Source: a virus (Duplodnaviria; Heunggongvirae; Uroviricota; Caudoviricetes). From it: a stretch of DNA of 44,809 nucleotides. Positions 3,555 to 15,123 of the stretch are shown here, piece by piece. The notes beneath the pieces were generated by a model. That model ran no database searches. It saw only the letters and a list, made by a program, of their open reading frames with translations, and had not been told where the DNA came from. How positions within the stretch are numbered: the stretch's first letter is position 1; the number at the start of each line of letters is the position of its first letter. A program made the position numbers and the translations under genes. The DNA lies in IMG/VR virus record IMGVR_UViG_3300042868_008486, positions 1-44,809 of that record. One strand, given 5' to 3'.

Positions 3555-4496
3555 CTAAATTCTTTTAATAATCGTACCGTCTGAATAGTGAAAAAATTTC
3601 ATTCCAGGTGAATCTACCGTAACGTCTTGACCTAATGTGTTTGTTATCTTAATTAATTCGGGGGTGAATTTACGATTATCAATTGATATGATATTAAAAT
3701 CTTTTGATTTACCATCATAATCGGTTTGCGTTAAATAATAATATGAAATATCATTAAAATAACCCCTCTCTAAGTATTGGTAAAAATGCGTAAATGATGA
3801 GGTTCCGACACCATCAACTTTTGCGACTTCCACCCAATTAATTGGGTAATATGTTTTAAAAATTGTGAAGAATTGATTATTAGTTTCTGTGGCAGTCGCC
3901 CATTCAAGTAAATTACCATCCTCAGTTTGTTTACCCTTGAAGTATAATAATTCAATAGGTAAACCTACAGGTTCAGATTCAAAGATTGATAAGTCATCTA
4001 AATATGCTGATGTTGGACCACCATAGATTGTGTTAGTCCATATTTGAAAATAACCCGACCCTGCGTATGTGGATAATATAGTAAACGACCATTGATACCA
4101 AGTATTCCAATTTGAATTACAACTTGAGTTAGTTTGATTATCAGTTGTTAATAATGTTGTTTGATTTGGTAACTCATTAGTGTTTACAACTACCGAACAA
4201 ACACGTTTTGTGTAAAAGGTTATTGTGTAATTATAATTCGCTTTAAAAGTAATAGGAATATAAATATAAATTGAATTACCATTTGCCGCGGATGAAAATC
4301 TTGAGGAATACTTCGTCGCGTCAAAAACATTACGATAATTTCCTGTGGCACTTTCATTCCTGTTAAAGACCCAAACATTTGAAGTTGATGACCATCCTGA
4401 TGGTGATACACTTGAGAAGTGTTGGTCAACAAGATAAGTCTGTCCATAAGTGAATATAGACAGACTTAACATTAAGATATTAATTAAAGTTTTCAT
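3555..4496 (-). CDS. secreted Bacteroidota-type protein with T9SS-like C-terminus
   Basis: Signal peptide; LPIELLYFKG...LEWATATETNN domain; terminal LIKITNTLGQ...YSDGTIIK. Confidence 0.65.
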   Translation of the reverse strand: MKTLINILMLSLSIFTYGQTYLVDQHFSSVSPSGWSSTSNVWVFNRNESATGNYRNVFDATKYSSRFSSAANGNSIYIYIPITFKANYNYTITFYTKRVCSVVVNTNELPNQTTLLTTDNQTNSSCNSNWNTWYQWSFTILSTYAGSGYFQIWTNTIYGGPTSAYLDDLSIFESEPVGLPIELLYFKGKQTEDGNLLEWATATETNNQFFTIFKTYYPINWVEVAKVDGVGTSSFTHFYQYLERGYFNDISYYYLTQTDYDGKSKDFNIISIDNRKFTPELIKITNTLGQDVTVDSPGMKFFHYSDGTIIKRI

Positions 4497-5527
4497 TTCT
4501 CATTTAATAAGAATTTATTAGAGATTGCTTTGAAACTGATTTTTCTGTCGTGTGAACGAATAACTAGCCCCTCTCTTTCGGTTTTAATATTTAAAACAGA
4601 CTTACCTTCAGCCATTAACAATAATTCATCAATTGTTTCAGGTAATGTAAAATCTAAGTCGAGAATTGGAACCGTTTTCACTTCCAAAATTTTAGTCAAT
4701 TCAAGCAAATCATCTAACGATAAATAGTCGTACTTGTCAATATCAAATCCGTTGAATATTCTAACTGTTTGACCAATACGTTGGTAAGGATTTCCTTGAA
4801 TTCCTTCACCGATGATTTCACCTTGTACCGCAAGGTTTTTCTCCAATCCAACCAACTTATCACGTAATCCTGATTCGATTGCGAATTTCCACATAGAATT
4901 GTTCACATCCTCCAATAAATCCAAGTTTCTTGAACACACTCCAAATACCCCGTCTTTAACGTAGTAAGTTACACTAGAACCATCTAATTTCTCAGTTACG
5001 TAGAATTTCGCCAATTTGTAGATAGGGTATTCTTTTGTCAAGTTTTGAACTCTTTCTTCATCAGTTTTCTTTAAAAATGAAGGAAAATTACCTTTAACTT
5101 GTCCTGCCAATTGTGCGGGAATTGGTGGTTCGTATTTCACAATGTTTAACATTTCTGTTACGTCAAGACCTTCAAACCAACCCATATCCATATTCGGTGT
5201 GTTTCTTTTGAAAACATCGTAAGCCTCTTTAAGGGGTAAGATTAACCCTTGAGAGATTTGACCTCGTAATCTGATTGTTTTCAAACGGAAACCTTCATTA
5301 CCGTCCGCCATTTTTTTGTATGAACTCTTACGTAAAAATTCAAACTCAGGTTCAATAGGTAAAAATGAGTCAACCTCACAGTAAACAATTAAGTCACCTA
5401 CTTTATGATTTACATCTTTAGCAACAACAACTTTCCATCCGTCAATTGTTGCCAATTCAATTTTGTCAGCCCCTTCGATTGGACTTAAATCAGAAATTTG
5501 TCTAATACTCGCTAATTTTCTTTCCAT
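4493..5527 (-). CDS. RNA ligase, DRB0094 family
   Basis: N-terminal RKLASI...IEGADKIE, KTDEERVQN, TEKLDGSS, QGE, EGLV, FKAISNKFL. Confidence 0.9.
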   Translation of the reverse strand: MERKLASIRQISDLSPIEGADKIELATIDGWKVVVAKDVNHKVGDLIVYCEVDSFLPIEPEFEFLRKSSYKKMADGNEGFRLKTIRLRGQISQGLILPLKEAYDVFKRNTPNMDMGWFEGLDVTEMLNIVKYEPPIPAQLAGQVKGNFPSFLKKTDEERVQNLTKEYPIYKLAKFYVTEKLDGSSVTYYVKDGVFGVCSRNLDLLEDVNNSMWKFAIESGLRDKLVGLEKNLAVQGEIIGEGIQGNPYQRIGQTVRIFNGFDIDKYDYLSLDDLLELTKILEVKTVPILDLDFTLPETIDELLLMAEGKSVLNIKTEREGLVIRSHDRKISFKAISNKFLLNEK

Positions 5528-8058: not shown

Positions 8059-8285
8059 TATCTGAAGAAATATTTTCTTGAATAATACCCAAGGGTGTTT
8101 ATGTCAATATCATCATTATTAATGAACATAAATCCTTGATATTGGTCGGCGATATGTAACGCACTTTCAATCATAGTACAAATACCAATTTTAAAATCTT
8201 TGGTTGCGATTTCATCGGTTCTTGATAATTGAAGGTTTGCGTAATCAACCATATCTTTAACTGAAACTGTTTTTCTTTTTGCCAT
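8058..8285 (-). CDS. hypothetical protein
   Basis: 75-aa ORF overlapping next start. Confidence 0.65.
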   Translation of the reverse strand: MAKRKTVSVKDMVDYANLQLSRTDEIATKDFKIGICTMIESALHIADQYQGFMFINNDDIDINTLGYYSRKYFFR

Positions 8286-8352
8286 AACATTAAGTTTTAT
8301 GTTACGAAGATATATAAATTTTGGGGAAAAACATACGGAATAGAAAAAAAAG

Positions 8353-8459
8353 TTATTAATACAGGATTCGAACCTGTGAGTCCCCGTGTATAGGTATCAT
8401 ACATACCACATTCCCGGACTTTATGTATGCTCAACCTTAAGCCACTCGGTCAATTAATT
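8353..8459 (-). ncRNA. tRNA-like RNA with expanded, non-canonical anticodon region
   Basis: D arm ACCGAGTGGCTTAAGGT, T arm ACAGG-TTCGAAT-CCTGT, AT-rich acceptor; central CATACATA/TATGTATG stem with 16-nt loop. Confidence 0.55.
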
Positions 8460-8673
8460 AACCACCCCTGAGATTACGGGGTGTAGATGTCCTCAGTTTT
8501 TCTTATACAAAACCCAACGCGTCTTACCGCTTAAAAATCAACCATTACGTCGGAGTGAGGATGGTGTTCCACACTATTAGCCCAACGACCCCCTTTACAA
8601 ATCCTAATGAGGTATCAGATATATCATTGTTTAAGTAACGATACCAAATCTAGTGAGTTTCTCGAACTCATTG

Positions 8674-8748
8674 TGGAGACAGTGGGAATCGAACCCACCA
8701 CACGGTGATTGCAAATCATCATCGCCACGCCTTGGAACATTTGCCCCC
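8674..8748 (-). tRNA. trnA: tRNA-Ala(TGC)
   Basis: Cloverleaf, loop TT-TGC-AA, G3:U70, A73. Confidence 0.9.
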
Positions 8749-8860
8749 AAATTTAGACAACAGGTAATACTCACATTTATTATTACCTAACTCAACGACC
8801 TCTGCAGTTGTGAATCTGTTTTAAAGGTTTTCCTCGGTGAAGAGTTTGTTGTCTATTTTT

Positions 8861-9019
8861 TTATTTGAAAGACTTTGATTGGTCCTCCCTATTTAATTCT
8901 TTCTCAATGTAGATATTGACCATATGTATTAGTGTGTCAGAATCAATATCAATTGTTTGACTTTCCTTACTTTCTTTCAGAAACGGAAAGATATTTTTAA
9001 AATACTCCTCGAATTTCAT
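8861..9019 (-). CDS. small hypothetical protein (52 aa, MKFEEYFKNIF)
   Basis: Read manually; follows upstream ORF directly. Confidence 0.5.
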   Translation of the reverse strand: MKFEEYFKNIFPFLKESKESQTIDIDSDTLIHMVNIYIEKELNREDQSKSFK

Positions 9020-9023
9020 TTTA

Positions 9024-9356
9024 TTATAACTTTATAAATGTTTCATTTTTGATTGATTTACTAATCCATCTTGCTAATTCAGAACCTCTTATTTCCGAAT
9101 TGAAAGAAGTTGTCCCAAGGTCTTCAGATAATGTTGTGACCACATCTGACTCCTTAACTTTCGCACCAACTTCTAATGTTGATACATTATGTGTGACCTT
9201 TACATCAACTGTTGAAATTGGAAACTCGTACATATCACCAAAAACCTCAATCTTGTAATACAAATTACCTGCAATATAGTGACTAAATTTAGCCATTGCT
9301 TTAGACTTCATTAAGTCTTTTTTAATTTCAGTTTCGTTTAACTCAATTGTAACCAT
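9024..9356 (-). CDS. hypothetical protein
   Basis: ORF within tRNA array; start uncertain. Confidence 0.65.
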   Translation of the reverse strand: MVTIELNETEIKKDLMKSKAMAKFSHYIAGNLYYKIEVFGDMYEFPISTVDVKVTHNVSTLEVGAKVKESDVVTTLSEDLGTTSFNSEIRGSELARWISKSIKNETFIKL

Positions 9357-9663
9357 TTTCCAATTTCCATTTATTATGTAATTCATTTATTGTGTGATAA
9401 GGACTACCTACACCTTCATAAATCTCATCAAAACCATTTTCTTTAGTAATAACAGATTCTTCAGCTTTAATTGCCCCCCTATATTTATCCCCGTAACTTC
9501 CTTGAACTGTTTTTGTTGCCGGGTCAATATCACCCCAAGATGCTCTCCAACTTCTTGGTTCAATATATTCTACGAAATATTGTTTACCTGTTTCAGGAAA
9601 TACAACAATTTCTTTTCCTGTTTCGTCTCGATTTACTAAGAAATCTCTTTTTACATCTTCCAT
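9343..9663 (-). CDS. hypothetical protein
   Basis: 106-aa ORF within tRNA array. Confidence 0.75.
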   Translation of the reverse strand: MEDVKRDFLVNRDETGKEIVVFPETGKQYFVEYIEPRSWRASWGDIDPATKTVQGSYGDKYRGAIKAEESVITKENGFDEIYEGVGSPYHTINELHNKWKLENGYN

Positions 9664-9692
9664 AACTGACTGTTATACTGTTTATTTTATTG

Positions 9693-9765
9693 AGCGGGTG
9701 GGGGGAATCGAACCCTCGTCCTTAGATTGGAAGTCTAATATAATAAGCCACTATACGACACCCGC
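9693..9765 (-). tRNA. trnG: tRNA-Gly(TCC)
   Basis: TTAGA-CT-TCC-AA-TCTAA, GCG start, U73. Confidence 0.93.
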
Positions 9766-9851
9766 AATTTGGGTAGAATCAGACGCGTTCTGTCTACCGA
9801 GACCTCGACGTTGTACTATGTTTCAAGTCAGAGCGTACCGAGACACTATTG

Positions 9852-9931
9852 TGAACCTGGAGGGAGTCGAACCCTCAATCCTAAAAATCGCGGCTTAAAC
9901 ACGACGCGTATACCAATTTCGCCACAGGTCC
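9852..9931 (-). tRNA. trnL: tRNA-Leu(TAA)
   Basis: TCGTG-TT-TAA-GC-CGCGA; 11-nt variable region. Confidence 0.88.
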
Positions 9932-9937
9932 TTTTTG

Positions 9938-10010
9938 TACCCCTACAGGGATTCTAACCCCGATTAAACCCTTAGAAGGGGTTGGTCCTATACAGTTGAA
10001 CGATAGGGGC
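9938..10010 (-). tRNA. trnR: tRNA-Arg(TCT)
   Basis: AACCC-CT-TCT-AA-GGGTT; variant T loop TTAGAAT. Confidence 0.85.
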
Positions 10011-10019
10011 GAATTATTG

Positions 10020-10091
10020 CGGACTATGTAGGATTCGAACCTACGACCTATCCGTTAACAGCGGAGTGCTCTACCACTGAGCTAATAGTCC
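10020..10091 (-). tRNA. trnN: tRNA-Asn(GTT)
   Basis: CTCCG-CT-GTT-AA-CGGAT, G73. Confidence 0.93.
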
Positions 10092-10103
10092 ATTTAATTG
10101 TTG

Positions 10104-10176
10104 AGGTCCCTAACGGATTCGAACCGTTATCCCTGGGTTACAAAGCCAGAATAATAAGCCATTATACTAAGAGACC
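10104..10176 (-). tRNA. trnT: tRNA-Thr(TGT)
   Basis: CTGGC-TT-TGT-AA-CCCAG (C31:C39 mismatch). Confidence 0.88.
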
Positions 10177-10319
10177 AATTAAGAGTGTTATTAATTCGTT
10201 TTACCTAAGACCGCGAATCCACGTAAAACTCAACTTCACCAATATTTTTACTGCAGTTCCAATATTGTCACATTGCTACTATATTGAACTAATAACTACG
10301 AATTACCCATCATAATTTC

Positions 10320-10392
10320 ACCATCGTTAGGGCTCGAACCTAAAGCTTCCGACTCCACGTCAGATGTGTTGACCAATTTACACCACTAGTTA
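10320..10392 (-). ncRNA. degenerate tRNA-like element (TGG-centred loop lacking U33, acceptor poorly paired)
   Basis: D arm GTGT-AAATTGGTCA-ACAC, T arm TTAGG-TTCGAGC-CCTAA. Confidence 0.5.
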
Positions 10393-10423
10393 CTTAGATT
10401 GACAAATAATTGTTTTTCTCTTT

Positions 10424-10498
10424 GCTGAATAATAAGGGTTCGAACCTTAATCTGAAATCCGTATTACCATCATCCGTGCTCCATTACACTATATCCAA
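10424..10498 (-). ncRNA. degenerate tRNA-like element without a clear anticodon arm
   Basis: D arm GTGT-AATGGA-GCAC, T arm TAAGG-TTCGAAC-CCTTA, weak acceptor stem. Confidence 0.45.
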
Positions 10499-10547
10499 TC
10501 GACAGTTTCGAACCTGTCATATAAAGGGTTATAACTCCTTTATTTTG

Positions 10548-10619
10548 CGGTCTATGCGAGAATCGAACTCGCGGCACATCCGTGACAGGGATGTATGTTA
10601 GCCACTACACCAATAGACC
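10548..10619 (-). tRNA. trnD: tRNA-Asp(GTC)
   Basis: CATCC-CT-GTC-AC-GGATG, G73. Confidence 0.93.
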
Positions 10620-10810
10620 ATAATAAAAACAAGTTTTTCGTGACCTTTACACATCATAACCAATTTTACTCGGTGATTACATTTTCGTCATTGGGGTAGC
10701 TAATCCCCGACTTATAGTAATTCTACCCTCAATACTTTACTATCGCGAATCAAGTACCATCTTGGGATTTATAGACAGTGAGGGTTTACTCACCGTCTTC
10801 ACTTGTTTAG

Positions 10811-10882
10811 TAGCGGGTACAGGATTCGAACCTGTGTCTTTGGGTTATGAGCCCAACGGGGTGACCACTCCCCCAACCCGCG
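10811..10882 (-). tRNA. trnfM: tRNA-fMet(CAT), initiator
   Basis: C1:U72 mismatch, GGG/CCC anticodon stem. Confidence 0.9.
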
Positions 10883-10887
10883 ATATG

Positions 10888-10964
10888 AATTACCCATAGG
10901 ACTCGAACCTACAACCCTTCGCCCTTTTGAGCGATGTGCAAACCAATTTACACCATAAGTAATT
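10888..10964 (-). ncRNA. tRNA-like RNA with a 4-nt AAAA loop replacing the anticodon loop
   Basis: D arm GTGT-AAATTGGTTT-GCAC, TCGCTC-AAAA-GGGCGA, T arm GTAGG-TTCGAGT-CCTAT, paired ends. Confidence 0.6.
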
Positions 10965-11059
10965 AATCAAGAACAATAAACAGAAATTAGTGTCGACAAA
11001 TTTCCTTAGGCAATATGTTTATTTTCTTGTTAGGGTTCGGTTAATTACTCCGACCTTTG

Positions 11060-11133
11060 TATCGCGTACGGGATTCGAACCCGTGATTTTCACCTTGAAA
11101 GGGTGACGACTTAAACCTCTCGTCTAACGCGAC
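11060..11133 (-). tRNA. trnE: tRNA-Glu(TTC)
   Basis: TCACC-CT-TTC-AA-GGTGA. Confidence 0.93.
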
Positions 11134-11150
11134 ATTTTGTTTTTTCTATT

Positions 11151-11220
11151 CCGATATGTCAAAGACCTTTTGTTTTCTTTTGTCTTACAAATCTAATCAT
11201 TTTCTTTTGTTCTCACAAGC
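11151..11220 (-). promoter_or_regulatory. internal promoter (TAGATTTG) plus boxA-like GGTCTTTGACATATCGG
   Basis: Near-duplicate of the 11491-11559 cassette. Confidence 0.65.
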
Positions 11221-11243
11221 TCTTTGTGATATTTTTTTTTCTG

Positions 11244-11317
11244 TAGTTCAGAAGGGATTTGAACCCCCAACCTTGACGATATAAGCGTCCTGCTCTCACC
11301 TGTTGAGCTACTGAACC
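11244..11317 (-). tRNA. trnI: tRNA-Ile(TAT)
   Basis: GGACG-CT-TAT-AT-CGTCA, A73. Confidence 0.88.
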
Positions 11318-11322
11318 AAATA

Positions 11323-11400
11323 CGTTTCACGTTTTAGGCCAATTAAACTAACCGCCCGTCGTCACGGACAGTACCGGAGTCGAACCGATATGTGATAACG
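11323..11400 (-). ncRNA. circularly permuted tRNA-like RNA (T arm, closed acceptor stem, D arm; YrlA-like topology)
   Basis: ATCGG-TTCGACT-CCGGT, ACTGTCCGT-GACG-ACGGGCGGT, TA-GTTT-AATTGGCCTA-AAAC; ends CGTTATCAC/GTGAAACG pair. Confidence 0.75.
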
Positions 11401-11403
11401 AAG

Positions 11404-11477
11404 TACCCTTGGTGGGATTCGAACCCACAAAAAAATAGTTTCTAAAACTATCGTGTATACCTTTCCACCACAAGGGT
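11404..11477 (-). tRNA. trnL: tRNA-Leu(TAG), short variable loop
   Basis: ATAGT-TT-TAG-AA-ACTAT; variable region only T6. Confidence 0.88.
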
Positions 11478-11569: not shown

Positions 11570-11601
11570 AAAAAAAACCCCTCTCTTTTGGAGAAGGGTT
11601 T
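11570..11601 (-). terminator. attenuator-type terminator of leader A
   Basis: AAACCCTTCTC-CAAAA-GAGAGGGGTTT followed by T tract. Confidence 0.85.
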
Positions 11602-11624
11602 CATTTAAATTTTATCTTAATGAA

Positions 11625-11702
11625 TTAACACATCTTCTCCGATACACAAGGATTGTCTCCCTCCGTTCTCGCATTTAAAAGTATGTTATTCAAATTTTGC
11701 AT
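11625..11702 (-). CDS. leader peptide A (25 aa, MQNLNNILLNARTEGDNPCVSEKMC)
   Basis: Codons 3-17 are all read by tRNAs of the downstream block; contains GGAGAAG complementary to terminator arm. Confidence 0.8.
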   Translation of the reverse strand: MQNLNNILLNARTEGDNPCVSEKMC

Positions 11703-11787: not shown

Positions 11788-12186
11788 TTAATTTTCAAGT
11801 ACTTCTTTAACAATTTTTGAAACTAAAGTATTGTCGGCTTTACCCTTATATACTTTATTGAAAGCACCCATCATTTTACCAACATTATCAATACCATCTT
11901 TTTTAAATGTTCTGATGATTGAACGGATACTAAATTCATCCATTAACTTTGGTAAATATGGTTTAATGTATTCTAATTCTTTTAAAGATTCATCAGTGTT
12001 TGTCTGTGTTAATGATTTTTCCATTTTCTTTAAAATAGAAAGAACTACCTCATCTGTCACACTAACACCTCTACCTTCTTCATTTTGGATTTCACCTTTT
12101 AGTACACCTAAAAAGTTTTTCTTTTCCATTTCTTTGTTTTTAAATGCCGTCATAAATTCGACATTAATTTGTTCTCTTAGTGACAT
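11788..12186 (-). CDS. GatB/YqeY domain protein
   Basis: MSLREQI...AFKNKE, KGEIQN, YLPKLM, GKMMG, GKAD. Confidence 0.85.
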   Translation of the reverse strand: MSLREQINVEFMTAFKNKEMEKKNFLGVLKGEIQNEEGRGVSVTDEVVLSILKKMEKSLTQTNTDESLKELEYIKPYLPKLMDEFSIRSIIRTFKKDGIDNVGKMMGAFNKVYKGKADNTLVSKIVKEVLEN

Positions 12187-12203
12187 AGTTATTTGTTTTT
12201 AAG

Positions 12204-12284
12204 TGGGTGCGGAGGGATTCGAACCCCCACGCGATTAAGACCTGAGCTACAATCAGGCGAGCCAGCCAATTGCTCAACACACCC
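12204..12284 (-). tRNA. trnY: tRNA-Tyr(GTA), divergent copy
   Basis: CCTGA-TT-GTA-GC-TCAGG, extended variable region. Confidence 0.82.
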
Positions 12285-12359
12285 ATAAAGAAAATATCGT
12301 AGATTGTCCTTCACAATTTAACGGCGGGTTTGAACTTAATCAACTCTCCTACGATATCT

Positions 12360-12445
<86 letters not shown>

Positions 12446-12471
12446 ATTATATGACAATTAATGTCATTTCG

Positions 12472-12543
12472 CGCACCACCAAGGACTCGAACCCTGACCA
12501 AATGGGTTGGAACCATTTATGCTAGCCATTACACCAATGATGC
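12472..12543 (-). tRNA. trnW: tRNA-Trp(CCA)
   Basis: AATGG-TT-CCA-AC-CCATT, G73. Confidence 0.9.
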
Positions 12544-12570
12544 GAATAATGAAATTTTTATATTTCATTG

Positions 12571-12644
12571 AGGACAGAGAGAGGTTCGAACTCCCGAATA
12601 ATGGGTTTGCAGCCCACCCCTTTAGACCACTCAGGCATCTGTCC
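12571..12644 (-). tRNA. trnC: tRNA-Cys(GCA)
   Basis: GTGGG-CT-GCA-AA-CCCAT, U73. Confidence 0.92.
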
Positions 12645-12840
12645 AATTTAATATTAAGTCGCGAGTAATCCATCTGTCGCTTATTACTAGAATCTTGTGG
12701 CTTACTTACTATAGTTCATACCGTTACCACTAGGAAACCCAACTTAATATCTTCGTACTAATTATTTTAGAGATTGGTTCCCGAAGGATTAAACCATCAC
12801 TTGTACTTCGTGTCAGGAGGTAAACCCCATATCTCTAATG

Positions 12841-12912
12841 TAGCCCCTGTAGGACTCGAACCTACACTATCTTGTATGTAAAACAAGTACTTCACCTTTA
12901 AGCTAAAGGGCT
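12841..12912 (-). tRNA. trnV: tRNA-Val(TAC)
   Basis: CTTGT-TT-TAC-AT-ACAAG. Confidence 0.9.
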
Positions 12913-12920
12913 AATTATTG

Positions 12921-12995
12921 TGACCCCGGTGAGAATCGAACTCACGACCCGTACATTAAAAGTGTACTGCTCTAAACCAACTGAGCTACGAAGTC
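12921..12995 (-). tRNA. trnK: tRNA-Lys(TTT)
   Basis: GTACA-CT-TTT-AA-TGTAC. Confidence 0.93.
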
Positions 12996-13118
12996 AAATT
13001 TGGAAGGTCACCACAAACACCTTCCACGGTGAGTATTTTAATGTCGTTTTGTCTAATTACACCTAAGTGTCATAGTCGCAGGTCTCACTTCACGACAAAC
13101 CCGATTGGTATTAAGTAG

Positions 13119-13192
13119 TCGGTACGGTAGGATTTGAACCTACGACCTTTCACGTATCAGGCGAATGCTCTTACCAGCTGAGCTACGTACCG
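13119..13192 (-). tRNA. trnI: tRNA-Ile(GAT)
   Basis: TTCGC-CT-GAT-AC-GTGAA. Confidence 0.92.
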
Positions 13193-13199
13193 TTATTTT

Positions 13200-13274
13200 T
13201 GGTCGGGGTAGCAGGTGTCGAACCTGCCGCCTCTTGGTCCCAAACCAAGCGTCTCACCCCAAGACTATACCCCG
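13200..13274 (-). tRNA. trnP: tRNA-Pro(TGG)
   Basis: CTTGG-TT-TGG-GA-CCAAG, C1:G72, encoded CCA. Confidence 0.92.
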
Positions 13275-13287
13275 TTTGTTTGTTTAA

Positions 13288-13320
13288 CAAAGATAAGTAA
13301 TCATTTTCATTCTCACAATA
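13288..13320 (-). promoter_or_regulatory. internal promoter (TATCTTTG)
   Basis: -7 box 13 nt upstream of tRNA-Pro. Confidence 0.55.
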
Positions 13321-13340
13321 CCTTAGTTAATTTTTTTTTG

Positions 13341-13412
13341 TATCGTTATCAGGACTCGAACCTGAACCCACACCTTATGAGAGTGTTGTGACTACCTTTA
13401 CACTATAACGAC
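13341..13412 (-). tRNA. trnM: tRNA-Met(CAT), elongator (Ile2 not excluded)
   Basis: ACACT-CT-CAT-AA-GGTGT; no initiator features. Confidence 0.8.
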
Positions 13413-13417
13413 GTTTG

Positions 13418-13505
13418 CGGAAGATGTAGGGTTCGAACCTACGCGTCATATTTCAGACCTACTTGTTTAGCAAACAAGCCTCTTTACCAATTTGAGTAAT
13501 CTTCC
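13418..13505 (-). tRNA. trnS: tRNA-Ser(GCT)
   Basis: CTTGT-TT-GCT-AA-ACAAG, long variable arm, G73. Confidence 0.93.
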
Positions 13506-13545
13506 AAAATACACCGACCTAGCTCGGTATCACACATCGGATACG

Positions 13546-13617
13546 TAGTCCCCCAAGGACTCGAACCTTGACATTATCGTCCGTAGCGATAGGTGCTATC
13601 CGTTACACCAAGGAACC
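13546..13617 (-). tRNA. trnR: tRNA-Arg(ACG)
   Basis: TATCG-CT-ACG-GA-CGATA. Confidence 0.92.
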
Positions 13618-13622
13618 AAATA

Positions 13623-13729
13623 ATAAGGTTGGAGACTTATAATCGACCATTATAAGGTTGGAGCCTTATAATCACCCATTATTAGGTCTGAACCTAATAT
13701 TCACCCATTATTAGGTTATAACCTTATAT
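13623..13729. repeat. about 4 tandem 29-bp palindromic units
   Basis: ATWAGG-N6-(C)CTWAT-AWTC..CCATT units starting at 13623, 13652, 13681, 13710. Confidence 0.85.
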
Positions 13730-13908
13730 TGAGTTTTTCTGTAGTGTTTCCAAGTTTTATACATTCTAACTTGATAACTCATTTTGTTTCCGTAGAAACT
13801 TATTCCTTCATCCCAATAAATTGGGTAAAAGTCATTAATCAATCTATTTCGGTATTCTCTACCATTTTGTGCTTTGTTCAGTTTTGCTCTGTTGATGTTT
13901 GTACTCAT
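13711..13908 (-). CDS. small basic hypothetical protein (MSTNINRAKLNK)
   Basis: 65-aa ORF inside tRNA array. Confidence 0.65.
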   Translation of the reverse strand: MSTNINRAKLNKAQNGREYRNRLINDFYPIYWDEGISFYGNKMSYQVRMYKTWKHYRKTQYKVIT

Positions 13909-13934
13909 AGTTGTGGTTTTTAACCTACAACTTG

Positions 13935-14150
13935 TCAAATTTTTTCTTCATTTTGTTTAATGTAATCTAATGCAATGTGTATCAAACCGTTGAGATATTG
14001 CCATTTCGGACTTGCGTTCGGATAATGACCGAATATCTCAACTAATTTTTCTTCTTGCCATTTCCTTTCACTAATGATTGGAGATAACCATCGACCATTT
14101 TCTAAGTCGGCATTTACAAATGTTTTTTCTGTCTCTGCGATTTCTAAGTT
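13935..14150 (-). pseudogene. start-less ORF remnant (LEIAETEKTF...KQNEEKI)
   Basis: 71 sense codons with protein-like composition, no ATG/GTG/TTG near the 5' end. Confidence 0.4.
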
Positions 14151-14164
14151 TTAAAAATTAATTG

Positions 14165-14239
14165 GGAGTATAGTGAGATTCGAACTCACCCTATTAGCAC
14201 CACAAACTAACGTGCTCGACCACTGACACTATATACTCC
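14165..14239 (-). tRNA. trnH: tRNA-His(GTG)
   Basis: TTAGT-TT-GTG-GT-GCTAA; G-1:C73. Confidence 0.92.
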
Positions 14240-14317
14240 ATAAAAACCCCACTTCATCGGATTAATGGACCGACTGCCATATCGGGAGTGGGGGTTTTCC
14301 CATCAGTAGGGACTCCG

Positions 14318-14390
14318 TGGGACAGGAGGGAATCGAACCCCCATTGCTTGTTCTTCAGACAAGTGCCTTGACCAACTTGGCAACTGACCC
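14318..14390 (-). tRNA. trnF: tRNA-Phe(GAA)
   Basis: CTTGT-CT-GAA-GA-ACAAG. Confidence 0.9.
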
Positions 14391-14496
14391 AAATATTTTC
14401 ATCAAATCACCGATTACCACAATTACGGTGAGACCTTCGGGAACTGCCGTCCCGTGTTTTCTTTTTACCCGTGGATTAAACTATTTGATGGGGTAG

Positions 14497-14571
14497 TTGT
14501 CCCGGCAGGAATCGAACCTGCGATATCCACATTCAAAGTGTGGTGGCTCTGCCAACGTCGCCTACAGGACA
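14497..14571 (-). tRNA. trnQ: tRNA-Gln(TTG)
   Basis: CCACA-CT-TTG-AA-TGTGG, U1:A72. Confidence 0.9.
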
Positions 14572-14578
14572 ATAATGG

Positions 14579-14704
14579 TTACTTACGTAACCTTTTGATT
14601 AATTTTCTCAACAACCTAAATTTTATTTTAACCTCTTTAGGTTGTTGTCTTAACATTACTCTACTTGACTCAAATGTTCCCGTCAATACTTCTCTTTTTT
14701 TCAT
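14579..14704 (-). CDS. small basic peptide (41 aa, MKKREVLTG)
   Basis: Read manually; fills gap between tRNA-Ser and tRNA-Gln. Confidence 0.4.
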   Translation of the reverse strand: MKKREVLTGTFESSRVMLRQQPKEVKIKFRLLRKLIKRLRK

Positions 14705-14719
14705 TTTACTTTTATTTTG

Positions 14720-14802
14720 CGGAAGACGAGGGAATCGAACCCCCAAAGCTTTTACACCCAGCCGCTTTCAAGGCGGTGTCCTCGTCCATTCGGGCGCCTT
14801 CC
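14720..14802 (-). tRNA. trnS: tRNA-Ser(TGA)
   Basis: ACCGC-CT-TGA-AA-GCGGC, long variable arm, G73. Confidence 0.92.
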
Positions 14803-14887: not shown

Positions 14888-14922
14888 AAAAAAAAACCCC
14901 CGAACTTTTGGTTCAGGGGTCT
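14888..14922 (-). terminator. attenuator-type terminator of leader B
   Basis: ACCCCTGAAC-CAAAA-GTTCGGGGGT followed by T tract. Confidence 0.85.
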
Positions 14923-14946
14923 TACTAAATTAATATACGTTTATAT

Positions 14947-15066
14947 TTAACTTAATATGTTTTCTGAACCATATGACGTGCTAAACCACATCGGATACGA
15001 TACGCTACACACGCGAATCTGTTTCGATGGACTTACTTGTTTAATATGTTGTTCAGTTGTTCTCAT
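14947..15066 (-). CDS. leader peptide B (39 aa, MRTTEQHIKQVSPSKQIRVCSVSYPMWFSTSYGSENILS)
   Basis: Not in ORF track; codons 6-29 all read by tRNAs of the downstream block; contains TGGTTCAG complementary to terminator arm. Confidence 0.8.
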   Translation of the reverse strand: MRTTEQHIKQVSPSKQIRVCSVSYPMWFSTSYGSENILS

Positions 15067-15093: not shown

Positions 15094-15123
15094 CAAATTT
15101 AGTAAAAGTTCTTTGGTTGTCAA
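15094..15123 (-). promoter_or_regulatory. promoter of leader B (TTGACA...TAAATTTG)
   Basis: TAnnTTTG box about 27 nt upstream of leader ATG. Confidence 0.55.

Follow-up and report, generated by a model that had tools for sequence, protein, structure and literature searches.

A 39-codon open reading frame at the head of a tRNA gene block in a virus of the class Caudoviricetes, here called leader B, is very likely (probability about 0.87) a ribosome-mediated transcription attenuator that senses and controls the tRNAs encoded downstream of it. This interpretation had been put forward in a preliminary description of the sequence and is supported here by comparison and folding; it rests on no expression or ribosome data. 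The anatomy of the leader, the matching of its codons to the block, the mutually exclusive helices, the footprint geometry and the conservation of these features are shown by sequence, comparison and folding.

The window (the whole stretch of DNA analysed, 44,809 nucleotides) covers the initial 44.8 kb of a virus record of 186,832 bases that is ~64% complete, with a G+C content of 32%. On the minus strand, 26 credible tRNA genes lie between 14802 and 8673, together with two strong terminators (14923-14893 and 11602-11574), one heading each of two tRNA blocks that have no elongator anticodon in common:

12203 to 14802, minus strand: tRNA block B, 15 genes of 14 species (Ser-TGA, Gln, Phe, His, Arg-ACG, Ser-GCT, Met, Pro, Ile-GAT, Lys, Val, Cys, Trp and Tyr, the last twice)
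8673 to 11477, minus strand: tRNA block A, 11 genes (Leu-TAG, Ile-TAT, Glu, Met-CAT, Asp, Thr, Asn, Arg-TCT, Leu-TAA, Gly-TCC and Ala-TGC)

The first gene of block B, Ser-TGA (14802-14719), is missed by ARAGORN at default settings and recovered at a relaxed threshold; by inspection, the Met-CAT tRNA of block A looks initiator-like. Several other elements were seen in or around the array. Block A contains three tRNA-like elements with damaged anticodon arms, all below the Rfam threshold (window 10319-10390, 10424-10497 and 10887-10963), and relaxed ARAGORN also calls a permuted tmRNA at window 8265-8766, overlapping tRNA-Ala(TGC) at 8748-8673; Rfam matches to this tmRNA are sub-threshold only, and tmRNA calls occur in relatives L026, L034 and L041 as well. 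A YqeY-family gene (Pfam PF09424, window 11788-12186) lies between the two blocks and is found near tRNA arrays in many relatives, and downstream of the array at least one gene, co-oriented with it (window 4493-5527), encodes an RNA ligase with an OB-fold (PF09414, PF21189), consistent with tRNA repair. Further afield, scattered weak tRNA-like calls, including one with a CTA anticodon, occur at 118353-122640 of contig G000, and locus L033 has a tRNA with a stop-reading TTA anticodon at ~13959.

We infer that the host is a member of the Bacteroidota, because the promoter boxes and start contexts match that phylum: 29 of 38 TTG-N18/21-TAnnTTTG motifs on the contig lie outside genes, TAnnTTTG being the Bacteroidota sigma-A box (-7 consensus from PMC9723704), and the start contexts inspected are A-rich and lack a Shine-Dalgarno sequence, as is typical of this phylum (PMC6847099). 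The contig encodes a sigma-70-type factor, whose best matches among cultured phages are 35-38% identical and do not allow the host to be identified. Searches of cultured phages returned only short, tRNA-sized matches and no close relative. The T4-type capsid protein Gp23 was not found on the contig, which is uninformative, as the contig is only 64% complete and the controls were silent.

Leader B lies ahead of block B and comprises the following parts:

14947 to 15066, minus strand: leader B open reading frame, 39 codons, with an A-rich start context and no Shine-Dalgarno sequence
15051 to 15056, minus strand: CTGAAC repeat at codons 4-6, a possible anti-antiterminator when the leader is untranslated
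14980 to 15051, minus strand: sensor run, codons 6-29, 24 straight block-B codons covering all 14 species
14964 to 14971, minus strand: antiterminator TGGTTCAG, starting in codon 32 and complementary to the 5′ arm of the terminator
14926 to 14954, minus strand: AU-rich spacer hairpin, which holds the stop codon and brings the antiterminator and terminator arm together
14888 to 14923, minus strand: intrinsic terminator, with a hairpin at 14923-14893 (~-18 kcal/mol), its 5′ arm at 14916-14909 and a U-tract running to 14888

The preliminary description had reported a 39-codon frame in which codons 6-29 can all be decoded by block-B tRNAs and together sample all 14 species; both claims held. Its statement that the flanking codons belong mostly to block A held only in part, as the flanks are mixed (codons 31, 32, 34 and 39 are block B). 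It had also assumed, roughly, that each block reads half of all codons and put the run at 2^-24: the measured share of codons read by block B is 50.3% across the genes of this genome, giving 6.7e-8 for a 24-codon run at a fixed place, and the probability that 24 block-B codons will cover all 14 species is 0.0026. Long block-B runs turned up three more times in a six-frame scan of the 187-kb contig (22, 23 and 30 codons), seemingly in low-complexity or off-frame sequence, so that the significance of leader B comes not from length alone but from position, in the only open reading frame before the terminator that heads block B.

Several codons in the run are rare in this genome (AGC twice, CGC, CCG, CAG and TCG twice). 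As a separate observation, genes on contig G000 strongly avoid NGC codons (AGC 0.8, TGC 0.4, CGC 0.2 and GGC 1.0 per thousand), perhaps through restriction-site avoidance; leader B nonetheless uses AGC twice and CGC once. The frame is intact in seven orthologous loci, where every change within codons 6-29, amino-acid changes included, yields a codon still read by block B, which argues for selection on codon class rather than on the peptide.

Base for base, the antiterminator TGGTTCAG (14971-14964) complements CTGAACCA (14916-14909), the 5′ arm of the terminator (14923-14893), which is stronger than any other terminator in the region. Across six orthologues the antiterminator helix pairs in 100% of cells, with just two changes, both in L096 and both wobbles; the spacer hairpin is likewise 100% paired in six orthologues, and three of its pairs show compensatory double changes. 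Folding was performed with a ribosome mask reaching 10 nt past the A-site codon. For ribosome positions as far as codon 28, the antiterminator forms at 0.97 in the pre-terminator transcript; the value is 0.36 at codon 30 and zero from codon 32 onwards, giving a predicted switch point at codons 29-30, with the sensor run ending at codon 29. The claims made earlier about this geometry fared well: the 8-nt pairing between 14971-14964 and 14916-14909, starting 8 nt past the run, held; the ribosome-masked folding proposed as a check put the switch at the last codon of the run; and the proposed refutation—a pairing neither conserved nor compensated—did not materialise, the pairing being retained in six orthologues.

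The folding has its limits. At equilibrium with a stalled ribosome the terminator wins (-25.1 versus -18.4 kcal/mol for the antiterminator), which means that the switch must be kinetic, relying on co-transcriptional folding and coupling; the equilibrium fold of the full leader is always the terminator and so cannot reveal a switch. Even with no ribosome present, the pre-terminator transcript folds into the antiterminator (0.97). The start codons of leader B may be structural, because CTGAAC at codons 4-6 can pair with the antiterminator. It does so in the minimum free energy fold of the whole leader, but this pairing is not favoured in the pre-terminator transcript, and the 5′ pairing signal across families is modest (21/50000 permutations). 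Folding also predicts a hairpin over about codons 18-30. This hairpin and the CTGAAC pairing are candidates for the 1:2 (pause or anti-antiterminator) hairpin by which attenuators synchronise polymerase with the ribosome, although no polymerase pause site supports either. In an Rfam scan only tRNAs reached gathering scores, with no T-box or other known cis-regulatory family detected; matches to rnk_leader and Phe_leader fell far below threshold and probably reflect the terminator.

Block A is headed by a sister unit of the same design:

11570 to 11702, minus strand: leader A unit, with its open reading frame at 11702-11625 and its terminator at 11602-11570
11625 to 11702, minus strand: leader A open reading frame, 25 codons, including 15 straight block-A codons (11696-11652)
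11640 to 11634, minus strand: leader A antiterminator, GGAGAAG

Leaders A and B are the only units on the contig that combine a short open reading frame and terminator with strong antiterminator pairing. In a side observation on block A, the slot of its second gene (window 11243-11317) is occupied by tRNA-Ile(TAT) in the window and by a CAT-anticodon tRNA in L096 and L086, where leader A retains its ATA codon, which looks like a swap between lysidine-type Ile2(CAU) and Ile(UAU).

To set these two leaders in a wider context, viral loci were fetched by searching with three neighbouring proteins, with an alignment built on one of these and with a terminator pattern. Leaders were called by geometry: an ATG, 20-55 codons, a stop codon 40-65 nt before a hairpin and U-tract, and a tRNA downstream. 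The spacing range was set after the first examples had been seen; codon content was never used as a filter. This yielded 80 distinct leader units in 30 peptide families, with the stop codon 43-64 nt before the U-tract (a range partly set by the filter), and 42 of the 51 tRNA clusters with enough upstream DNA in the fetched loci were headed by such a unit. The blocks varied in make-up, examples being Pro/Gln/Tyr/Thr/Gly/Lys, Cys/Val/Leu, Phe/Glu/Asp/Ala, Glu/Leu/Trp/Cys/Arg and Pro/Asn/Asp/Gly/Thr/Ala, along with an 18-gene block in L028.

In the 24 families whose blocks are complete, the leader's own block reads 264 of the 321 sensor codons (82%), compared with 36% expected from codon usage and 34% +/- 4.5% when blocks are permuted (0/100,000 permutations reach 82%). 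The permutation figure is optimistic, because the large phages that supplied the families are related, which leaves the families less than fully independent. Contrasts within genomes that carry two or three blocks are unaffected by this kinship: the two leaders in the window score 23 versus 2 of 23 codons and 12 versus 0 of 12 for own versus other block; one leader in L028 scores 24 versus 1 of 24, and the sole within-genome exception, also in L028, scores 6 versus 7 of 13.

Matching extends to isoacceptors, judged from blocks with only one of two isoacceptors. ATA accompanies Ile-TAT in 4/4 families and ATT or ATC accompanies Ile-GAT in 4/4 (p=0.029); AGR accompanies Arg-TCT in 5/5 families and CGN accompanies Arg-ACG in 4/4 (p=0.008). 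For Ser and Leu there were too few informative cases. Sensor codons also favour the less-used synonyms (mean log frequency -1.30 versus -0.95 +/- 0.03).

Between codons -10 and -4 before the antiterminator the own-block fraction is 0.79-0.96; at codons -3 to 0 it drops to 0.33-0.38, against a background of 0.32. We regard this drop, three codons before the antiterminator and so at the distance of a ribosome footprint, as the strongest single evidence for occlusion by the ribosome, because codons played no part in defining either boundary. In 15 of 20 families, the switch codon is predicted to lie no more than one codon from the end of the run. Pairing of the last 45 nt of the open reading frames with their own terminator 5′ arm averages -14.4 kcal/mol, as against -8.2 with permuted partners (0/100,000), and across families the antiterminator is rewritten together with the terminator arm; the 5′ part of the frames shows no preference for its own terminator arm across families.

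These results all but exclude the view that the reading frame arose by chance in AT-rich spacer sequence and that the terminator is an ordinary one insulating the tRNA array. In favour of chance there are the three other block-B runs of at least 22 codons in the six frames of the contig. Against it stand the outcome of 0/100,000 in each of two permutation tests, one of codons and one of antiterminator pairing, the restriction of the full combination of short frame, terminator and strong antiterminator pairing to just two tRNA leaders on the contig, and the presence of a leader unit ahead of 42/51 tRNA clusters in the fetched loci.

A functional small peptide or arrest peptide, with the terminator merely ending its transcript, is very unlikely. 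The leader B peptide is 90-100% identical among close orthologues, as this view would expect, but no peptide motif is common to the leader families, and leaders that share a terminator hairpin are entirely different from family to family. The sensor also accepts amino-acid changes so long as the codon remains block B. It had been proposed that conservation of the peptide whatever the tRNA set would refute the attenuator; this refutation did not occur, since a single family of terminator hairpin is found behind unrelated leaders whose codons track different blocks.

We also consider it improbable that what the leader senses is translation rate in general, or transcription-translation coupling, with the exact identity of the tRNAs secondary. 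A 24-codon window covering half the code would respond to nearly any slowdown, and the antiterminator forms even without a ribosome in the pre-terminator transcript (0.97). But such a sensor would have no need to exclude the other block's codons or to follow isoacceptors, nor would the leader need to be rewritten when tRNA genes are reshuffled.

One out-of-sample case also fits the attenuator reading. A search of bacterial genomes with one terminator pattern gave four matches: three unrelated terminators and L128, which has the same terminator and antiterminator and a Leu/Ser/His/Tyr leader before a block of His, Ser, Ser, Tyr and four Leu tRNAs. The L128 unit (4444-5409) lies on a 375-kb contig of a Bacteroidota MAG and may belong to a binned jumbo phage or be chromosomal. 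Other leaders fit poorly: the first L113 leader matches at 4/10 codons, and some leaders retain codons whose cognate tRNAs were undetected in the block. A Leu/Arg-rich leader of 22 codons before Leu-TAA, Arg-TCT and Leu-TAG (L043 1258-1386, L052 5051-5179) has, in L043, no antiterminator inside the frame, and its switch may lie past the stop codon or be different. In L036/L037 (5557-5976), two tandem leader-terminator units precede one tRNA block, suggesting a two-stage attenuator.

Candidate signals for transcription flank leader B on both sides:

15094 to 15123, minus strand: candidate leader B promoter of the Bacteroidota sigma-A type, with TTG at 15123 and -7 box TAAATTTG at 15101-15094 (start site predicted)
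15088 to 15081, minus strand: AT-rich motif ATATATTA, following the leader promoter
14878 to 14846, minus strand: second host-type promoter, downstream of the terminator, with TTTG at 14878-14875, spacing N21 and TATCTTTG at 14853-14846 (function inferred)
14834 to 14823, minus strand: boxA-like GTTCATTGACAT, between terminator B and tRNA-Ser (function inferred)

The motif ATATATTA is related to an ATATTTA motif found genome-wide before phage genes. The promoter and boxA-like site between the terminator and the first tRNA had been omitted from the preliminary description, and they limit the control that the leader can exert over block B. This raises the possibility, which we judge unlikely, that the attenuator is real in the family and largely bypassed here, the downstream promoter making most block-B RNA and leader B adding little. 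For bypass speak the TTTG-N21-TATCTTTG promoter and boxA-like site (14878-14823), the -7 box being retained in orthologues L063, L065, L069 and L096, as well as a similar promoter after terminator A and two more inside the tRNA blocks. Against it, leader B is not decaying: its frame, codon class, antiterminator and spacer hairpin are all retained, with compensatory changes. The two promoters may also act at different times of infection, and a division between early transcription from the host-type promoter and later transcription from the upstream promoter is a plausible possibility, although only an inferred one.

Among the 80 units, 19 have a host-type promoter motif downstream of the terminator; in 33, the first tRNA lies no more than 35 nt from the U-tract, leaving no room for another promoter, and these must depend on read-through. 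Because of the downstream host-type promoter, leader B in this genome probably gates extra input over a basal supply. The stretch from block B to leader A yielded no terminator, so transcripts of block B may go on to traverse attenuator A.

Under the attenuator reading, leader B would sample the speed of decoding at codons read by the 14 tRNA species encoded downstream. When translation is fast, the ribosome would pass codons 6-29 and, at codon 30 or beyond, cover the antiterminator; the terminator hairpin would then form and transcription from the upstream promoter would end at ~14890. If a block-B tRNA runs short, is cut, or lacks its modification or its amino acid, a stall anywhere up to codon 29 would leave the antiterminator free to pair with the 5′ arm of the terminator, across the spacer hairpin and before the 3′ arm is made, and polymerase would read into block B. 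The net effect would be negative feedback, with tRNA shortage raising tRNA synthesis, while the second promoter, past the terminator, would probably provide basal supply and the leader gate the extra input. Translation of the leader, coupling of transcription to translation, the direction and size of the effect, the read-through response in vivo and the physiological trigger are all inferred; amino-acid limitation or lost modification would use the same switch and cannot be distinguished here from tRNA cleavage.

A bolder reading, which we rate as slightly less likely than not, is that of an inducible counter-defence: a host anti-phage nuclease cuts a tRNA and the stall itself induces the replacement block, each leader auditing codon by codon what its block can replace and being rewritten in evolution whenever tRNA genes move between blocks. 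Phage tRNAs are known to rescue cells from the P2-OLD, PARIS AriB and retron PtuAB anticodon nucleases, and ribosomes are expected to stall at a codon whose tRNA has been lost (PMC10264068; PMC12445682). Cleavage of tRNAs by such defences offers a likely trigger, although the relevant sections of these papers make no mention of phage tRNA genes being regulated or linked to a sensor.

The reason for the large tRNA sets of phages has been an open question for more than 50 years (PMC10264068), and codon-sensing leaders make it testable codon by codon. If a block is switched on by slow reading of its own codons, phage tRNAs would be on-demand replacements and not only a constant supplement for codon bias, and the leaders would list which tRNAs each phage expects to lose. 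They may also flag tRNA genes missed by annotation and offer a compact multi-tRNA sensor for reporters. More broadly, they would extend attenuation from amino-acid supply to tRNA homeostasis.

A search of the open-access literature, with most subscription journals outside its scope, found no paper on leader-peptide attenuation of tRNA genes. For the amino-acid operons of a flavobacterium, control by leader-peptide attenuation has been described as likely (PMC9723704), and the case for coupling in Bacteroidota rests on that paper alone. In Anabaena PCC 7120, a long tRNA array, the L-array (trn operon), is induced under translational stress (PMC8421152); there, a DNA-binding repressor at the promoter has been proposed, and leaders or attenuation are not mentioned. 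In E. coli, attenuation of pheST through the pheM leader senses charged tRNA via a leader open reading frame. That system likewise controls part of the translation machinery but, unlike the phage leaders, responds to one amino acid and governs synthetase output.

The closest parallels are the attenuators of amino-acid operons (trp, his, leu, thr, pheA and the multivalent ilvGMEDA; PMC1183508), which likewise have a short leader frame with regulatory codons, an antiterminator overlapping the 5′ arm of an intrinsic terminator, and read-through upon slow decoding. The defining features of leader-peptide attenuators at the sequence level—leader frame, cognate codons, terminator and mutually exclusive antiterminator—are all present here, the switching of the antiterminator by prediction only, and the less-used synonymous codons of the phage leaders are in line with the model in PMC1183508. 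The phage leaders differ in that the controlled genes are tRNAs rather than enzymes; a leader can sample as many as 14-16 tRNA species, each about once, where amino-acid attenuators have runs for one to three amino acids; matching reaches the level of the isoacceptor; the antiterminator lies inside the 3′ end of the leader frame; and the systems are phage-borne, with sister leaders splitting the code between their blocks.
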